Positions 22,701 through 64,000 of a stretch of DNA of 64,000 bases are shown in pieces. The number at the start of each line of letters is the position of its first letter. The first letter of the stretch is position 1. A program made the translations under genes and the position numbers. This stretch comes from Phoronis australis (lineage: Eukaryota > Animalia > Phoronida), in NCBI GenBank assembly GCA_002633005.1, contig NMRA01000344.1, positions 99,008 through 163,007 on the forward strand, in the 5' to 3' direction. Under the pieces are notes generated by a model, which saw only the letters and a program-made list of their open reading frames with translations, was not told the DNA's origin and did no database searches.

Positions 22701-25700
22701 GCTTTCGATTTCGTTAGGTGACTAGCGGACACAGATCACTGCCATGTTTTGAAAGGTCTATGAGCACATCTGATATTCCCATGTATTCTTGTGGTCGGAG
22801 AGTGGCTAATACGTATGTCATTTCAAAAGAATTTTATCAAAAAGTGGTTCCAAAATATTTCTGGCGCACCAATTAAACTAAGATGAAAAGTATTCCATCT
22901 CCAAAACCGCGGGAACTGTTAAAAATCATGTAAAATGCCATCTAATTGGAACTGTTTCGTCAATTCTATGAAGCTCATCTGCGTTGAAAGTAAAATTGCA
23001 AAATTCACCAAATACCAAGAAAAGTCATTCACGTCTGTGATATACAGCAATTGCTTACGAAATAAAGCTTTACTATATGGTATACTTAATGATCTAAACT
23101 GACCCTCATTATCATCAGGCGCGTTTAAAATGAAAATTAAAACGTGAATAATTCCTACATTAAACAAATACAGTTTTCATAGTACACGTTATGACCGAAA
23201 GAAAAGCTCGTAGTGATCAAGCTTTGAACACGTGCAGCGGTCCAAGTGAGTTGTATTCTTACGCTGTTCACTTTCCGTAACCTTTTCCATTGGCCAAGAG
23301 GCGGACAGACGTTCATTCCAATCTATGTCAGACAAATTGCCTTGGACATGAGCAATGATGTCAGAAGCAAGGTACAAGACTTAAGCAAAGTCTGTTCAAC
23401 CAGTAACACGAGCACTGCAGGCTACTTCCGTTGCTTCACTTGATAACACTGTCAAACTTAGGGTTTGAAGAACAGGCGCTATTCGTTTTTATAACAATCA
23501 ACCAAAGTGAACGAAACAAAACTTTTAAATTAATTAATCAAACCACTTTCAAAAAGGAAATATTATCCTTCGAGGTAATAAATGGTTAATGTAGACTAAC
23601 CTCAGACCTAGACATGTGCTCAATGCAACGCTTGAGTTGGGTTCATTGCGAACGCGGCCTTGGTAGTAGCAATTGTGAAGGCTCTGGAATAGAGGAAATC
23701 CGAGAAGAAAACAATAGACATTTGTTTTAAGCTAGGCATGACAGTTTTGTGAATGACAAATGGATCTTCGGGAATTGAAATTAACACATGCAGTGCAGTA
23801 TACAAGATACAATGATACAGAGCCCACTCATAGATTGCGGCAGACCATTGACAAGAAAAGACTCATTCTTACGAGTTGACCGATTCAAGCAGTGAAGTGT
23901 AATTGTTTGCCGAAATACTGTAATATTTGGCAACAGAATTGGGGCTCCAAGAAGCTCATTTCATTTGCGCAAATGACAGTTTTTTATTATTAATGTTTAT
24001 TACGAAAACTTCAGAATACAATGAATTACATAACCCAGAAAGCGCCAAGAGGCATTATATCTGGGTTAAAAATACAAAGAAGTCTATGCACAATTATTAT
24101 ACACGAATACATAAATTAAAAAACTGATGTTAAGATTACAATGATATATGATTACGAATGTAAACAAATCATTTTCATACACATGTATACAATTCTATCC
24201 ACTCACAAAAAAGATTTAATATTATAAAGAAATTGTGATACTATTTCAAATAAAACCTTATTTTCGTTTGGGTTGAGTTCTTGACATCCATATAGAAAAA
24301 ATTAATTTTGTTGTACAATTGCGGAATTTCAGAATATTTTTGTAAACATTGGGGTATTGTTCGAGTGTCTGGAAAAGCTGTACCCTCTGCTCCTTGCATA
24401 CGTCACAAGCAAAGAAAACATGAGGATATGTCTGGGTGTCTCCACGGGAACACAGAGGCGAAATATTCTTAAAATTATGTCTAAATTTCTCGTTGTATAG
24501 GAATAGACCGCATGTTGATCTGTATAAGGTTATTTCATGGTTGCAAGGAAGTTGGAATGATGTCAATGGGACTGGCAAGTCTTGATTAGTGGTCTGCATT
24601 TTAAAGTTATTTTGAGAGTGACGATTGAAGTGCTTTCTTTTATTTTGGATGGTAAGGAATTCCAGTTGTCAATACAAGTTAATATCGTTAACCTCCTGAA
24701 GGCTTGGCTGAGGGAAGATCGAATAGTGTGCATATTACTTTGCCACAGTCCTGGTCTTGTGTTTGGTCTTTTGTAAGAATCAAAGAGGATTTTGTTTGAA
24801 TATTTGTTTATGTTGGTTAAGACTTTGAATGTATACATGGACAGGTAGAGTTTACGACGGGTTGCTAGTTTGCTCCAGTTGAGACTATTTAGAGCCTTGA
24901 CTGTATTGGACCCTTTGTGTGTCCCAGTTATGGCTAAAGCTGCTTGGTGTTGTAGTCTTTCTAATTGAAGAAGTATGCCTGCGTTTGCCGATTGGGAGGT
25001 TATGTCATAGTAATCTAGATGTGGAAGTACAAAAGACTTGAACAGAGTTTCCAGCTGCATGGAGTTGATATGACGAGAGATAATTCTAATTGGATTAATT
25101 AATTTTTGTACTTTTTGAACGAGTTCGCGACAATGAGGAGTAAATGTAAGCTTATGGTCTAGTAGCAAGCCAAGATGTTTGTGCGTGAATTTATTGGGAA
25201 TAACTTCCCCATTAAGTGATAATTCCACCATTGGATTTGTTTTGAAATAATGAGTATTATTAGACTTAGAAAATATAATATCAACACTTTTTTCAGGTTT
25301 AAATTTCATCTTCCATTTGTAAGACCAGTCATAGAGTTTGTTCAGGTCAGTTTGCAATTGTAAGGAGTCGTGGGGATGCTCTTTTAAGAATGAGTAGAAA
25401 ATTGCAGTGTCATCAGCATATAAGAATGTTTTAGAGTTTATGTGTCTGGAAGATCATTGATGTACAGTAAAAAAGAGTAAGGGGCCTAGTACACTACCCT
25501 GTGGCGCAAATGACGATGCGAACACTTAATTTCTCCGTCGCAATTTGACTGCAACTGGAAATATCATGAATCCAGATGTGGTCTAGCATCTCCGTAAGAC
25601 GCGCTGCCGTTCACATTCGTACTTCAAAGTTGAATAATTGTTGGATGCCGTTAACGATAACAGAATCACTGCCATCGGTGAAACGTTAGGAAGGTGCATT

Positions 25701-52017: not shown

Positions 52018-52977
52018 NTCGCCCCGATTGGCGCTACGCCCTTCAATGGAATTCCCGCTTTGCGCGAATCCTAAACCACCCGCCTTACTGAAAACATAGA
52101 TCCGCCACTGTCTGCTATGGTTGAATTAACAGATATGCAAAATGCAGTAGGCCTTCACTTTTCTCAAACCCAAGTCTGTTTCATTATGACGGGCGGATCC
52201 TCACTCCTTGGTTGGGGCACCGCCCCCCGCCACCGACGGAACAGTCGATGGTTAATAAGCCAATTGGACCTGTAATGACAATCAATATTACCAAATAATT
52301 TTCCCACTTGTGTGTTTTTCTCCATTTATTTGTAAAAATTCAAGTGAACAACCGGACGGTGCCATAGCCTGGCATGATTGAAAACATGGATGCCTTGCAT
52401 GAGTAATCGCGCCTCCATATAACCCGCCGCCGGGAAAAATTAAAATTGCACGACCCCTGGAAACTCATGATTTTCAACTTCATAAAATAGACGCNCCGAC
52501 CTCGCCCCGATTGGCGCTACGCCCTTCAATGGAATTCCCGCTTTGTGCGAATCCTAAACCACCCGCCTTACTGAAAACATAGATCCGCCACTGTCTGCTA
52601 TGGTTGAATTAACAGATATGCAAAATGCAGTAGGCCTTCACTTTTCTCAAACCCAAGTCTGTTTCATTATGACGGGCGGATCCTCACTCCTTGGCTGGGG
52701 CACCGCCCCCCGCCACCGACGGAACAGTCGATGGTTAATAAGCCAATTGGACCTGTAATGACAATCAATATTACCAAATAATTTTCCCACTTGTGTGTTT
52801 TTCTCCATTTATTTGTAAAAATTCAAGTGAACAACCGGACGGTTCCATAGCCTGGCATGATTGAAAACATGGATGCCTTGCATGCGTAATCGCGCCTCCA
52901 CATAACCCGCCGCCGAGAAAAAATTAAAATTGCATGGCCCCTGGAAACTTGTGATTTTCAACTTCATAAAATAGACA
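52018..52977. repeat. Near-perfect ~480-bp tandem duplication, likely an uncollapsed haplotype
   Basis: Both copies start at a single N (52018, 52495) and differ by a few SNPs. Confidence 0.85.
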
Positions 52978-55606: not shown

Positions 55607-56717
55607 AGTGTGTATTTACTGTGTGATGGGGATATTTTCAGATAAATCGAATCTTTAATCGTTGAAATGGTTTCCGTATCTCAGTGTGGTTGTTTCTGTA
55701 TGTGTGATTTTTTGTTGTCCTCCTTCTGGATGCCAATCAGATTGAAGTGTATGTTTGTTATTGACAGAAAAAAATGTACATGTAGGTGTGCAACTCCCCA
55801 CCTCATGGTCGGATTCGTTGATTGGACAGGTGTAAAACTTCCTAAAGCCTTTTTATTTCTCTGGATACACCTATACACTTGTATTGCAGTCGTCGTGTTT
55901 TTTTTTACTACAGAATCTACGACACAACGGTTTGAGTTTTGAGACTATATAGATTCAAATGGAGCAAACTATTAATTACGTCCTCTGACACACCGCCACC
56001 TATACAGAGAAGTGGTCCAGTAGAATCATGATGAGCGACACACAGAATTCCGCGTGTGGGCATCAATGCGCATGATCAGGTCGGAAGTTTATCGATCACA
56101 TCGCAACCACTTGCACACGCTTTTATGCACTGTACTTGTTTGGGCTCAAGCCACTGGATCGGGGTTCCCTTGATTTTGTTTACTTCAATCACTACAGTTT
56201 TAACAAATTGTAACTATCCAAGTCGAAAATAGTCACCATACTACGTATAACAGTAAACTGAAAGGGGGGTTTCCCAGATTTCAATCAATGGGAATGACTG
56301 AATGTTATGACGTCGGTTTCATCACTTTAACCAATGAAAAGCAAGCACCCCCTACATGCGCTTTGTGAAAAAAAAAAAACATGTCGATGTAATTATCATT
56401 CCTTGGTATAATCTGAAGTAGATTCGGGAAACTGGATCCGTGTAATTGCAAACTTCGACCTCCGGCTTAAGACCGCCCAGCAGTGGTGTTCAACTAGGAA
56501 AGATCATCAAATTTAGCTGAGTGAGCCTTTAGGTCAGGAACTATTTATTGTGTAGACCTACCGGACGAACTAACGCTGACAATCTGATTGGCCAACCAGA
56601 AGGAGGACAACAAAAAATCACACATACAGAAACAACCACACTGAGATACGGAAACCATTTCAAAGATTAAAGATTCGATTTATTTCAAAGTATCACCATC
56701 GCACAGTAAACACAGCC
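55607..56717. mobile_element. Non-autonomous element with ~135-bp terminal inverted repeats
   Basis: 55610-55745 is the reverse complement of 56580-56715. Confidence 0.8.
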
Positions 56718-58456: not shown

Positions 58457-58466
58457 TTAAGCCAAC

Positions 58467-58645
58467 ATGGCGGTCAGAAGAAGCGCGACATTTATAATGG
58501 AACTTCGTGGTGCAAGCTTGTGTACTGGGATCGATGTCACGATGTCTGAATTTGTTGTCGATTGTAAACGTGACCTGGAGTGTTGGTGTAGACATATTTC
58601 AATGGAACAAGTGTTGCAAGAAACCGTCACTTTAGTGAAAGCGAA
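58467..58645 (+). CDS. Candidate first exon of an unidentified plus-strand gene
   Basis: Strong Kozak context gccaacATGGcg, open 59 codons, donor AA|GTAAGT. No domain confidently recognised. Confidence 0.3.
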
Positions 58646-59096
58646 GTAAGTTGCCTTTTTTGTTGGCCGGGTGTGCTCGATTTGTGTACTATCAGTGTAG
58701 GTTGTGCAAACGAATAGAGTCGTACCCCGTGTTGACAATTAACTATAGTCTACAGACTACTACGGGAAGTCGGGAAAGTACTTCTGATTTGGAAAATTAT
58801 GATGCACACCCATTTAGAGAGTGGACTCTATATCGCAGTACCGGCAAAGGGGCCCATCTGTAAGAAACTCCTTGAAAACTCACCTTTTGACAAACAATTT
58901 CCCAAAAACCGCCTTTTGTTTGGGTTAATTTCATCAGAAGGGAGGGGTGGTTCTCTACTCTAGTGAAAGTGTGCCACCAAGAGGTCAGAATTTGGCTACC
59001 AAAAAGGTATTTAACCTATTTGGAAACCAGAAATTCCCTTTTGTAATCAGTGACGCAAAAAAATCATAGAGGGACACATTTGTATACATATATACC

Positions 59097-59392
59097 TGTT
59101 GTAATATAAGGGGGTCACTGGCCAAGCAGACACACAGGTTTGGGCCTATTAACGCGGTGCAAGAGAAAAGTCCGGAGTATACTCACATTGCGTCCGGACA
59201 AAAGCAAACTCCAGAAGAGCCAGACGATCTTGTCACGTGGTCTTGAAGGGTGACGGTCACATGATAGAAGGGTGACCTCGGCTGGGCTCTTCTGGCGTTA
59301 GATGTCGCACCAGGCCAAGACCAACATTGTTAACAAAAGGACATCACAACATAGAGACGCCACAGCCGAGACTGACGTCCACATTTACTACA
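59097..59392 (-). repeat. 3' LTR (296 bp)
   Basis: On the minus strand it begins TGTAGT and ends ACAACA; near-identical to 63735-64000. Confidence 0.93.
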
Positions 59393-59406
59393 TTCCTCCC
59401 TTCCCT
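59393..59406 (-). other. Polypurine tract
   Basis: AGGGAAGGGAGGAA directly abuts the TG of the 3' LTR. Confidence 0.88.
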
Positions 59407-60278
59407 AAAGAAAAGGAGTGGAGCCCTTATAGCAAATGGCGAACGTCACTCCCAACACCTAAACATAAACCCTTGACCTAAGACAACAGTGACACGACTT
59501 TAAACCCTATAACTAACATGATGAGGAGTGACCTTGTGAAGTAAGAATTACTGTTTGAAATTTAATCTAACTATTCTCCCCCCCCCCCTACCAAAAAAAC
59601 AAATACTAATTAGACACACAGTCATTGCATATATCCACTTAGTAGTCGAACATGACTAAAAAAGAAAAAAAAGAAAATATGCTCCACTAATACCAGTACC
59701 AGGGAGCATAGAATTCCTGGACTATGCTATGACAACACTCTGATTGTTGGTGATGACCTGGCGAGAGAATATATACATTTTTTGAAAAAAACTAAAAAAA
59801 TGAACAACAAAAGCATACTGGCCATAAAATGAGTATTCATTACTTTAGTAGTGATGCACCGAGATATAAAACGATATAGTCTTTAATAACATACATAGAC
59901 TATATAGGAAACTTAACTTAATATACAAAAATAAACTATATAGTAACAACTAATACATAATACTATAGAAAGTATAGTCTTGAATATATAAATAGACTAT
60001 ATCTAGTATGAAAACTCATAACAAAAATATACTATATAGTTTTAACAAATAAGCACTTCTGTATAAAAATAATGGACCAGTACGCTACTTTAACTACTTA
60101 TACTACTTAATTAGGACATAACACTTCTACTAGGACCAAGGGTAAGGCACAAACCCAGAGACCGTAGTCAGCCTCAGAGTTTATAATAACGGGCAATTAC
60201 CCAAGTGACTAGGAGAAAACCCGGGGCATAAGTTATGACCCAGGCACACCAGGATGCTGAACCACCTCTAACAATTTG

Positions 60279-61499
60279 TTAGAGATGGTAAAGCCGCCTG
60301 GCATTCCTGGTGGAAACAGCCAGGATGTCACGCAGCGGACGACGAGAACGCTGCGCCACCTCCATAGCTACTTCCCCCAGGTATTGGGGTGCCATTGGGA
60401 CTTGCCCAATGGCGAGGTGCGGTGAATCAGATTCCAGGAGGAGTCGATTCAGCGGAACCTCTTGTAACCCCTTATTTTGGAACTTTAGAAACTGCCGCAC
60501 ATGACCGGCGAAGCCGAAGTGGCAGTTTCTAAAGAACCCCGTCCACCGGAGTACATCCTCGGGCGCACCTCCAAAACAATGGAGATGCAAACCCCAGTCT
60601 GCATCACAGTGGCGCTTCAGGAGACCAAAGACGAAGTCTTGTCCCTCCAAGAAGCGTGGATTGTCGGGGGAACCACGAAGGTGGATCACCACGACTTTGT
60701 TTTTGAAGCTGGGGGAGCTGGCCCGAACCTCCGCAAAGATTCGCACCATCTCCTCCAAAGCTTCTTTTTGGATGGCCAAGTCCTCCCGGGCCTCCAGACC
60801 GACCTCGCCTAGGCCAGCTACAAAGGGCTACTTTAGTAGCTGGGGGAGACGCTCCAGAACACCGGGGTTCGTTGATCCAACCCGTTTTGGGTGGATGCCC
60901 ACCACAGCCTTCCAGCCATGTGTGAAAGGGGAAGCCTCAACGTACTTCCAGTTTTCCACATCGCAGAAAACTGCAATCCCACCAACCAACCGCACAGGTT
61001 TTTGAGAAACCCGTGGCAGCTGGGTGCTGAGCATCTGATCGATCGTCAGCATCCTAGTCTCAGTGATATGACACTGAGCCCAGGATGCCGACAAGCGATC
61101 CAGATGGAAGTGGGCATCTATAGCCAAATCAGGAGATGGTCCTGATTTAGCTTTGGACGCGGACGGCGAAGTCCCAGATGAACGTCGACTCTTTAGGGGC
61201 CGGCCAGGTGGCTGGCGGGCTTTTGCCACACACGACATCCGAGGGTTAGGCGAACAAGCATCCCTCACCCTTTGTGGAAGTGTGACCTTCTGCCTCCGGT
61301 GGAGCAGACGGCCAGTCTGTTGGTGTAGGGTGTTACCAGAAGACGCCTCCTGAATATTAATAGTGTCCATAGGGGCATCTACAAACTCAGGAGGTGGATC
61401 CTGCAAAACGACAGGGTTGTGGGGCACCTTTGACCCCCCTGAAATGGGATCCGGAACCAGGGTGTGTACAAAATCTAATGACTCAGAATTACCAACAAG
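60279..61499 (-). pseudogene. TatD-family metal-dependent nuclease inside the LTR element; one in-frame TAG at 60828-60830
   Basis: IDAHFHLD, VGIHP, GLGEVGL, VVIHLR, HLHCFGG, LLLESDSPH and NARRLY: the full TatD motif series in one frame. Confidence 0.9.
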
Positions 61500-61941
61500 C
61501 TAGAAACAGCTTCACCACTCAACTCAGACTTATCTATCGAATCAACCGGAACCAAGACTGGGGTGTTAATCACATCAGCATCAGTAATGGGTAACTCAAT
61601 CGGACTAATCTGAGTGAGCACGGAACTTTGGGAGGCCGGACACTCCATATCACCAAGGGAATCCCGAGCACAAGGCATATCAGTAGACAAGTCAACCAAA
61701 TCATGAACTACATCACAAGATCTAGCCAAGACAGGTCGACCTCTCCCTCGACACTCATCGCGCACAGAAATACCTCGAGAAGAAGTGGACAAACTCCCTA
61801 CCTTAAAACAGTCTAACAGATTAGTCGATAGGCGTTTGATGTTTTTATTTAATGAACCTAATAGACCATCCGTGGGACCGAATTTCTTAGTGGGGCGGTC
61901 TGAGGATACCCTACTATTGGCATCACGAGATTGGACTGGAG

Positions 61942-63390
61942 TTAGACCTGATCGTCCAGCCTCAACTCGTTTAAATCATCGGACTTATCCCCAAAGGATG
62001 TACGACGAATTCTAGCCGACTGCGGGCTCCGGCACGCAGACTGGTAGTGACCAAACTTACCACACTTAAAACACATTACTGAAGGTCTTTGTGGGGAAGT
62101 TTGGGGGGACCTAGATAGTGGAGGGGATCTGGATGGTTTTGAATTAGAATCCAACAATTTTAGTACCCTCGACAAATCTGAGGTAATGCCCCTAAAATTC
62201 GAACTCATAGTCTGGGACATACTCTTAAGTTCTCGATGTATAAGGGCATCGTCTTCTTTAAGACCTCCTATTTCAGAGTTGACCTTAGCCATCTGAGATT
62301 CTAAAGCATGCAGCCTAGACTCAACCGCAGAGTTTGAAGCAGAGGATGCTATTGGACCGAATTTAAGCGCAGGTTTTTTGTGCTGCGAAAGCAGGTTGAC
62401 AGAAGCTGCGTCATTGCGCGATGGTGAGCCCTCGAACCAAACAGACCGACGGTTTTGATTTGCCATCAATCGCTGGGTCGTTGCGAACCATGCAGCTTTA
62501 GACTCTGCCTCAGCTATGGATACAGGGGATGAGTTCATCACCTGCGTACCTACAACCTTATCTCGTAACCCAAGGGAGAAACGGAATACAAGATCTACCT
62601 TTTCTTGCTCCGAAGGGTTCGGGAAGGCTTTTAAAAACAACCTGCTTAACCTACACGCCCAGTTCTCAATAGATTCCCCCGGCTTTTGCTCGGCGTATTG
62701 GAATTCAAGCCGTAGGACCTGGGTGCAGTCAGTCGAAGAAAAATGTTCCGACATGTGTGCAACCACGTCATCGAAACCAGAATCTGGGTTCGTTCTCATG
62801 AAGTTAAGGAAGAAATGCAAGGCCACATCGTCCAGACACATTCCTAACTCCCAGACGCACTTGTCTTCGGACCATAAGTTGTCCTTAGCCAAGCGCTGAA
62901 ATTTCCAAAAAAAGTCGTCCCATTAGCATTTTTCCCCTTGAAAAACTAATTTAGATGGGGCATTTGGCCTTAAACTATAGGGACGGGTGTGGGTAGACGG
63001 ACCAACCGTTCGGCTACCAGAACTCGGGCCAGGCACAGGCGAAGAAGAGTACTTCCTTCTTACTGTAACAGGGGACTTGCTCAACCTGTCACAGGCCTGG
63101 GCAATGCTACTTAAGTCCTGGGGCAAACGGGTACATACAGGACTACCCAGAGGAGAGGTATCTCGGGACTTAACATCACCATATTGGGTGAAATCAATGC
63201 CAGAAATAGCACTCCTCGTCAACCTCCATCCGGAATGGATGTGGTTAACATTTTCTGGGGTTATCGACTGAGTTTGCCGAAAAGCCAGAATGGATTGGGC
63301 AATATCTTCTGTCATGCCCGAGAGCTTGAATAACTCTTGGGAAAGACAAAAGTTTACCGGAACCCTGTCTTGGAAACACATCCTAAACAC
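61942..63390 (-). pseudogene. gag: gag: HhH-like N-terminus, capsid-like domain, CCHC zinc knuckle; one in-frame TAA at 62923-62925
   Basis: ORFs 62923-63390 and 61942-62892 share a frame: KLVFQGEKC*WDDFFWKFQRLAKDNLWSE. Also QKPGESIENWACRL and CFKCGKFGHYQSAC. Confidence 0.88.
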
Positions 63391-63718
63391 ACGGGGCTTT
63401 GTCTTAGGAAAACCACGTGGTCACGTGACCTATTCTAGAATTCCTAGAAAGGTTCAAAACTCTAACTAAAATACAAAATAATAAATACAAACTATACTAT
63501 ATACAATTACACCAATAATAAATACCTATTTACATGAACCTACAATTCCTACACTAAACTAACGCCAAACGCTTGAAATTCTCGTAAACCTGAACTCAGG
63601 CACTGCAAAAGCAGTGACGCACGTGGCTGTCAAAATGGGCACGAGAAAACAAGTTACGAAAACTTATTTCCCGCCACCACCGAAAGACACGCACGCCGCT
63701 CCAACACCGGGAAATAGG

Positions 63719-63732
63719 TGCCGACTACGCCA
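63719..63732 (-). other. Primer-binding site, tRNA-Ser
   Basis: TGGCGTAGTCGGCA lies 2 nt from the LTR and is complementary to the tRNA-Ser(AGA-type) 3' end ...UGCCGACUACGCCA. Confidence 0.9.
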
Positions 63733-63734
63733 AG

Positions 63735-64000
63735 TGTTGTAATACAAGGGAGTCACTGGCCAAGCAGAAACACAGGTTCGGGCCTATTAACGCGGTGCAA
63801 GAGAAAAGTCCGGAGTATACTCATAATGCGTCCGCAAAGGACGGGAGCGAACTCCAGAAGAGCCAGACGATCTTGTCACGTGGTCTTGAAGGGTGACGGT
63901 CACAGAGAAGGGTGACCTCGGCTGGGCTCTTCTGGCGTTAGATGTCGCACCAGGCCAAGACCAACATTGTTAACAAAAGGACATCACAACATAGAGACGC
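63735..64000 (-). repeat. 5' LTR, truncated by window end
   Basis: Matches 59097-59360 with about 10 substitutions and 2 small indels. Confidence 0.93.

Follow-up and report, generated by a model that had tools for sequence, protein, structure and literature searches.

Among long terminal repeat (LTR) retrotransposons, the closest described case is that of Juno and Vesta from bdelloid rotifers, whose third open reading frame (ORF3) encodes a DEDDy exonuclease of untested role (PMC5408684, as far as the accessible part of that report describes it). Another group of nucleases, the group II TatD enzymes, is defined by an HxH motif (PMC10085689). Group II and related TatD enzymes are described, in the parts of the literature available here, as 3'-5' exonucleases and apurinic/apyrimidinic endonucleases (PMC10085689, PMC10711561), and an E, E, D set of residues carries out catalysis in both the E. 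coli TatD and the human TATDN2 enzyme (PMC10711561). The substrate of human TATDN2 is the RNA strand within R-loops, and plain RNA:DNA duplexes are attacked little (PMC10711561, PMC10085689). A 64,000-nucleotide stretch of the phoronid Phoronis australis (contig NMRA01000344.1, positions 99,008 to 163,007; here called the window) brings the two subjects together, as it ends in a Ty3/Gypsy-type element with gag and a TatD nuclease and without pol. With slightly better than even confidence, this element is explained as a dead copy of a pol-deleted Gypsy derivative belonging to a multicopy family mobilised in trans. A Gag-TatD fusion, which unbroken members would make by -1 frameshifting, is predicted to enter particles in the place of Pol and may trim RNA or single-stranded ends there in the 3'-5' direction.

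Encoded on the minus strand, the element runs from 59097 to past the window end, with the layout of an LTR retrotransposon from which pol is absent (Table 1). The paired LTRs, primer-binding site (PBS), polypurine tract (PPT) and gag claimed in an initial annotation from the letters alone could all be located. As in Ty3/Gypsy elements, the LTRs are bounded by TG...CA, with the outer 5' LTR end lying beyond the window; 251 of 269 alignment columns of the pair are identical, the rest being 8 transitions, 2 transversions and 8 gap columns. The first 12 PBS bases occur once in the window, compared to 0.06 occurrences expected by chance; the matching tRNA is presumably tRNA-Ser. The annotated lack of pol is borne out, as tblastn of the window with three pol proteins of relatives gave no match anywhere in it, and the order of protease, reverse transcriptase, RNase H and integrase that marks an autonomous Ty3/Gypsy element is missing from the window element. 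The window copy is dead as a coding unit because of three breaks: a TGA in gag ahead of the capsid-like part, a frame change near 61499 and a TAG in TatD. The single interruption originally reported is thus correct for the TatD domain, whereas the gag TGA, the second frame break and the slippery heptamer TTTAAAC had been overlooked.

Table 1. Features of the TatD-bearing element in window coordinates, listed in the direction of the element
Feature	Position	Strand	Remarks
5' LTR	63735..64000	-	cut by window end; ~32 further bases expected
PBS	63719..63732	-	two bases inside 5' LTR; PBS-like TGGCGTAGTCGGCA
gag	61942..63381	-	helix-hairpin-helix, PNMA-like capsid, CCHC knuckle; TGA break at 62925-62923
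TTTAAAC slippery heptamer (T-TTA-AAC)	61969..61975	-	gag frame, gag end, 57 nt past knuckle
Predicted hairpin	61927..61968	-	directly behind slippery site; -14.4 kcal/mol
ORF2, first piece	61475..61975	-	-1 frame to gag; 166 codons; basic pol-like spacer, acidic linker from ~61730
ORF2, second piece	61131..61499	-	linker in TatD frame; 123 codons, leads into TatD
Group II TatD domain	60279..61130	-	HxH, GEVG, IHLR, HCF, ESD motifs; TAG at 60830-60828
3' untranslated region	59407..60278	-	AT-rich
PPT	59393..59406	-	adjoins 3' LTR
3' LTR	59097..59392	-	296 bp, complete, TG...CA; left edge agrees with empty-site reads

The TatD domain is complete, with all six metal-ligand motifs present as first described. 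The Pfam check proposed at that stage, run on the read-through translation with X at the stop, gave 90 bits against TatD_DNase (cut-off 27; E = 1.7e-25). The predicted structure adopts a triosephosphate isomerase (TIM) barrel fold with a predicted local distance difference test score (pLDDT) of 91.7; its best Foldseek matches are TatD structures, and its template modelling score against YcfH is about 0.76. Residues E109, E233 and D235 correspond to the catalytic E91, E201 and D203 of the E. coli enzyme as given in the accessible text of PMC10711561. With the Pfam score above the cut-off, the barrel, and the HxH motif plus the E, H, H and E-x-D ligands, the domain belongs to group II. No DEDDy (DnaQ-like) exonuclease was found in the window element, in which the only nuclease matches were to TatD_DNase and the fold is a TIM barrel.

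A search with a four-sequence alignment recovered 30 related loci: metagenome contigs account for 27, and a single bacterial metagenome-assembled genome (MAG) for the other 3. Pol stands upstream of TatD in 12 of the 13 loci with at least 1.88 kb of upstream sequence, L020 being the exception; the other 17 are too short upstream to show pol. None of the 30 has gag without pol. In Pfam terms the relatives combine three parts: a gag with HHH_3, with PNMA or Retrotrans_gag and with zf-CCHC, then pol, and finally a long ORF3 that has TatD at its end. Their pol contains protease, reverse transcriptase, RNase H and integrase, often with a PHD finger, and is found in order in L007 and L017. The window element joins L002, L003, L005, L013, L028-L030 and others in one clade by the placement of its TatD, the helix-hairpin-helix, capsid and CCHC build of gag, and the TTTAAAC at the gag end. 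A profile search returned 613 clusters at E values up to 1e-30, possibly including host and bacterial TatD; the best 150 of the 613 (50% clustering) all reach 5e-61 or better. The members that carry a name belong to scallops, a mussel and snails. No related locus was found in viral contigs, and a PBS pattern search gave none at the gag 5' side of the related loci.

For 53 TatD domains, with TATDN1 and TATDN3 not among them, a quick maximum-likelihood tree places the window TatD inside a 31-row clade that holds all 10 pol-linked loci used (support 98 in the Shimodaira-Hasegawa-like approximate likelihood ratio test). The three TATDN2-type rows, one named TATDN2 and two assigned by the tree, form a separate clade with a support of 99, and the 17 bacterial-type rows also stand apart. 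The window TatD shows 39% identity to an element ORF3, compared to 23-29% with the three TATDN2-type proteins. Among non-element rows, the clade profile scores TATDN2-type proteins best (128-175 bits), followed by YcfH (113), TATDN3 (59) and TATDN1 (52). These data bear on the idea that an LTR element captured a host TATDN2 mRNA in a single event of template switching. The lack of introns, the group II HxH motif common to TATDN2 and the profile ranking would fit such a capture, but the identities, the separation of the two clades and the existence of pol-linked relatives make it very improbable. A recent retrocopy of host TATDN2 is refuted by the low identity and the lack of nesting in the TATDN2 clade, as far as three TATDN2-type rows in a quick tree define that clade. 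As judged by sequence comparison in a tree lacking TATDN1 and TATDN3, TATDN2 is the likeliest distant source of the element TatD.

TatD is therefore cargo rather than a one-off capture, given the pol-linked relatives and the shared gag build and slippery site. The initial annotation had proposed a retroelement family that captured a nuclease, which holds for TatD as family cargo; the capture itself is old, common to elements of many animals and not made by the window family. The roles first suggested for the nuclease, all hypothetical, are cDNA processing, abasic repair and attack on competitors. Its refuting case, a single copy nearly identical to a host TATDN gene, was not found. The picture of a TatD in the position of pol does not stand, since TatD in this clade is the end of a separate ORF3 that follows pol. 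The alternative offered with it, a pol-deletion derivative of an autonomous TatD-bearing Gypsy, agrees with the pol of 12 of 13 loci, the same gag build and the missing sequence of about 6 kb.

The extent of this deletion follows from the relatives. Slippery site and TatD are separated by 857 nt in the window, compared to 6.6-7.0 kb in L017 and L003, and profiles of two other conserved ORF3 modules match most relatives and give no match in the window. The short distance and the absence of both modules indicate that all of pol, protease to integrase, was lost together with the front part of ORF3; the element lacks about 6 kb, comprising pol plus the two modules. It thus falls short of a full ORF3 with N-terminal helical and zinc-finger/helical modules, of which L005 also lacks the second. 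The ORF2 pieces, searched by tblastn against the relatives, reached best E values of only 0.014 and 0.001, and the second matched the ORF3 linker of L005 weakly (E 0.001). As neither piece is placed firmly, the junction is bracketed rather than mapped. Candidate positions lie near 61721, where a minor contig diverges, and near 61499, where the reading frame between gag and TatD switches in the window copy; the charge of the ORF changes from basic to acidic near 61730. The two ORF3 modules (L003:6346-8166 and equivalents) have no Pfam match. One is N-terminal and helical, the other combines a C2H2-like finger with a helical bundle whose fold is predicted confidently (pLDDT about 87-98, residues 101-230 of P0005). 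Fold searches with a module-plus-TatD model were dominated by the TatD barrel and are uninformative on the module.

Gag and its frameshift site are shared with the autonomous relatives. The Pfam matches of the window gag to HHH_3, PNMA and zf-CCHC are weak and all below the cut-offs. It is homologous at 1e-27 to the gag of L003, which passes all three, and its capsid and CCHC knuckle, expected of a Ty3/Gypsy gag, are recognised through this homology. TTTAAAC occurs once within the element, and the -1 ORF opens exactly there. In all four relatives with a gag-pol junction the heptamer lies 18-51 nt past the knuckle, against a background of 0.12 per kb; three of the four have it in the gag frame, and L017 is degenerate. 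This conserved slippery site suggests -1 frameshifting from gag into ORF2 in unbroken copies.

Public sequencing runs were used to look beyond the window copy. The four DNA runs represent one sample and contain 24-26% of the element's words; the RNA runs were chosen by species label. Reads of X4 cover all 30 bins of the element. Two deep contigs were assembled in this set, one of 514 nt over 61335-61841 (depth 485) and one of 265 nt over 61812-62076 (depth 644), with minor variant contigs at depths of 28-68; the equivalent depths in X3 are 85-208 and 6-13. The pol-less form is therefore the deepest assembled form in these runs. The reads are mostly 90-99% alike to the window copy and so derive from other copies. 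At the LTR edge, RNA reads (17 and 16) continue into flanks of mixed sequence, their agreement being 0.52 and 0.54, and other reads and a contig show an empty site at 59097. Probably at least ten pol-less copies exist, which would outnumber the longer forms. At the TatD stop codon, the window copy differs from every read (19/19, 11/11 and 8/8); the variant rows shown do not include the position of the gag stop. A length difference near 61499 in the deepest contig puts both ORF2 pieces in one frame, which suggests a single ORF2 in the commonest form.

The library strand is calibrated by a spliced plus-strand exon at 58460-58646, which ends at a GTAAGT donor, reaches contig depths of 236-490 and has no Pfam match; the element lies antisense just downstream. 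Family copies are transcribed in sense, with X7 sense-only over 60994-62300. A second deletion form joins the PBS directly to mid-TatD (window 60974) at a short shared stretch and is preceded by non-LTR sequence; it is represented by one X4 contig, 6 X5 reads and 12 X7 reads.

Selection was examined through 54 coding differences that separate the window copy from the commonest form; they were drawn from the rows with the best support (40 of 752 and 40 of 160), and rows at breaks and outside ORFs were excluded. In TatD, 10 of 16 differences are synonymous against an expected fraction of 0.29 (p=0.006); the gag count is 5 of 6 (p=0.008). Read in the -1 frame, the diverged segment 61501-61680 has 11 synonymous differences out of 22 (p=0.027); the numbers are 2 of 6 for the second linker piece and 1 of 4 for 61681-61975. 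The other two reading frames are without significant synonymous excess. This pattern of substitutions shows constraint on TatD in the lineage, in which the times before and after the deletion are not separable.

The element derives from a gag-pol-ORF3(TatD) Gypsy by loss of pol, and all cis signals, gag, the heptamer and the nuclease core were kept. In the preferred reading, unbroken members would make Gag, and -1 slippage would yield a minority Gag-TatD fusion predicted to co-assemble into particles, following standard Gag-Pol biology. Reverse transcriptase, RNase H, integrase and protease would be supplied in trans by the Pol of a helper or relative. The nuclease dose would be low and Gag:Pol-like, as a frameshift gives. 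The most tentative step concerns the substrate: TatD may be a metal-dependent 3'-5' exonuclease whose targets are RNA or single-stranded ends and also three-stranded intermediates of reverse transcription. A bolder extension, held to be doubtful, sees a satellite-like element that rewired the gag-pol frameshift to load a nuclease into shared particles; the fusion would be selected for helping the element to outcompete its helper, for example by acting on its own intermediates or by destroying rival RNA. A further option is a functional free TatD, translated from an internal start or from a spliced message, that acts outside particles, for example in R-loop clearing or in countering host silencing, as the autonomous ORF3 may. 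ORF3 is a separate ORF in the relatives, methionines occur within the linker, and human TATDN2 degrades R-loop RNA according to the accessible text of PMC10711561; but no canonical splice joint inside the element is among the joints listed and the ORF3 start region is deleted, which renders this option improbable.

A stronger competitor to the frameshift-fusion reading, although still the less probable of the two, is an ordinary internal deletion whose products spread on their cis signals, perhaps with Gag, while TatD rides along near the 3' end and the frame of the fusion is accidental. Chance alone would put a deletion in frame one time in three. The two clade-conserved ORF3 modules are gone, a second deletion form occurs in X4, X5 and X7, and the end branch of the window TatD is long (1.36). 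The bdelloid TelKA2n offers a precedent of a pol-deleted family keeping ORF3, and the available part of the same report finds no significant departure from neutrality for bdelloid ORF3s within the genome (PMC5408684). An unselected passenger is harder to reconcile with the synonymous excess in TatD, the intact catalytic motifs, the retained slippery site and the absence of the TatD stop from all reads over that codon.

Several further points weigh against a selected, packaged Gag-TatD fusion. The synonymous excess rests on 54 differences from best-supported rows and may predate the deletion, in autonomous ancestors, or stem from template switching with helper RNA; the linker signal (p=0.027) is lost once the number of regions, five, is corrected for, and no such signal is present in the other linker piece. 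The hairpin behind the slippery site is not significant alone, as 6.7% of shuffles fold equally well. Contig depth does not equal copy number, the two deep contigs share a 30-letter overlap, one under the bridging rule, and the DNA runs, with so small a share of the element's words, may come from another population or species. The frame-preserving length difference near 61499 is present in only 3/10, 2/21 and 0/5 of the RNA reads scored, several variants occurring there, and over TatD in X5 and X6 antisense reads exceed sense reads. A helper element was not seen, the sole branch being one minor contig at 61721. Human TATDN2 without its N-terminal region lost R-loop binding in the experiments described in the available text of PMC10711561, and the window derivative is without the two ORF3 modules.

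Other observations concern the clade at large. In L007, L009, L013, L014, L017, L028, L029 and L030, pol ends in a PHD finger where chromoviruses carry a chromodomain, and gag starts with a helix-hairpin-helix. L028, L029 and L030 are bacterial-MAG contigs in which ORF3 occurs with the integrase/PHD end of a Gypsy pol under the annotation 'TatD family hydrolase'; they are probably animal host DNA inside a symbiont bin. Four near-identical TatD-like models from one snail genome (P0007, P0027-P0029) lack several catalytic motifs, which suggests a pseudo-nuclease branch of the clade. A mussel model named 'tatD' (P0205) fuses gag-like, protease and ORF3 sequence of the clade. In L007, L013, L001 and L009, gag follows within 0.6-2.8 kb after TatD, with identical or near-identical ends in L007 and L013, reflecting either LTR collapse in assembly or tandem arrays. 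L020 has an 811-codon frame resembling ORF3, with 2 kb of AT-rich sequence upstream and without a pol match; it may be a further non-autonomous form or else a domesticated gene.

Elsewhere in the window, a 122-nt inverted repeat pair at 55611-56714 resembles a miniature inverted-repeat transposable element, a direct repeat with a 483-nt period occupies 52019-52976, and a 296-codon ORF at 24563-25453 resembles by eye the end of the reverse transcriptase of a long interspersed nuclear element. Rfam gave three matches on the window, all below the gathering score and taken as chance. One, to SNORD31 (61518-61588, minus strand; E 0.024; 25 bits, gathering score 40), lies in the most diverged stretch of the element and is probably also chance.

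No publication describing TatD in an LTR element was found among article listings and the opening parts of abstracts; supplements, Repbase or Dfam may list such families. TatD does not occur in the accessible main texts of PMC6238403, PMC8556966, PMC6338049 and PMC5408684, nor do DNase, nuclease or hydrolase in that of PMC13524379; two surveys of mollusc and annelid LTR elements make no mention of TatD in the main text. What appears to be new here is a pol-less form, probably amplified, in which TatD stands behind the frameshift. With it, a TIM-barrel nuclease joins the few enzymes known as ORF3 cargo in LTR retrotransposons. A derivative that dropped pol yet kept TatD is a natural test of whether the cargo benefits the element, a question that the bdelloid studies left open. 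The genes of this large clade are publicly annotated as host or even bacterial TatD, which affects how many TatD genes are counted in invertebrates and in symbiont MAGs.

The following comparisons draw on the parts of the cited reports that were available. The lineage resembles Juno and Vesta in combining a Gypsy-type gag-pol with a non-env ORF3 that encodes a 3'-5' exonuclease with intact catalytic residues. In contrast to these two, the enzyme is a TIM-barrel TatD instead of a DEDDy exonuclease, pol is deleted and the nuclease stands behind the gag frameshift site. TelKA2n (PMC5408684) is likewise non-autonomous, with most of pol missing and ORF3 kept, but its ORF3 is env-like and its gag C-terminus is missing, whereas gag here is full-length with knuckle and slippery site. 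The plant TR-GAG elements (PMC8704663) share the retention of LTRs and gag, the loss of pol and transposition helped in trans; gag is their only ORF and the example is Copia-derived, while here a second ORF ends in an enzyme. With TATDN2, TATDN3 and YcfH (PMC10085689, PMC10711561) the window TatD has the HxH motif, the metal-ligand residues and the fold in common; it differs from them in its separate clade, its low identity to TATDN2-type proteins and its location on a mobile element.

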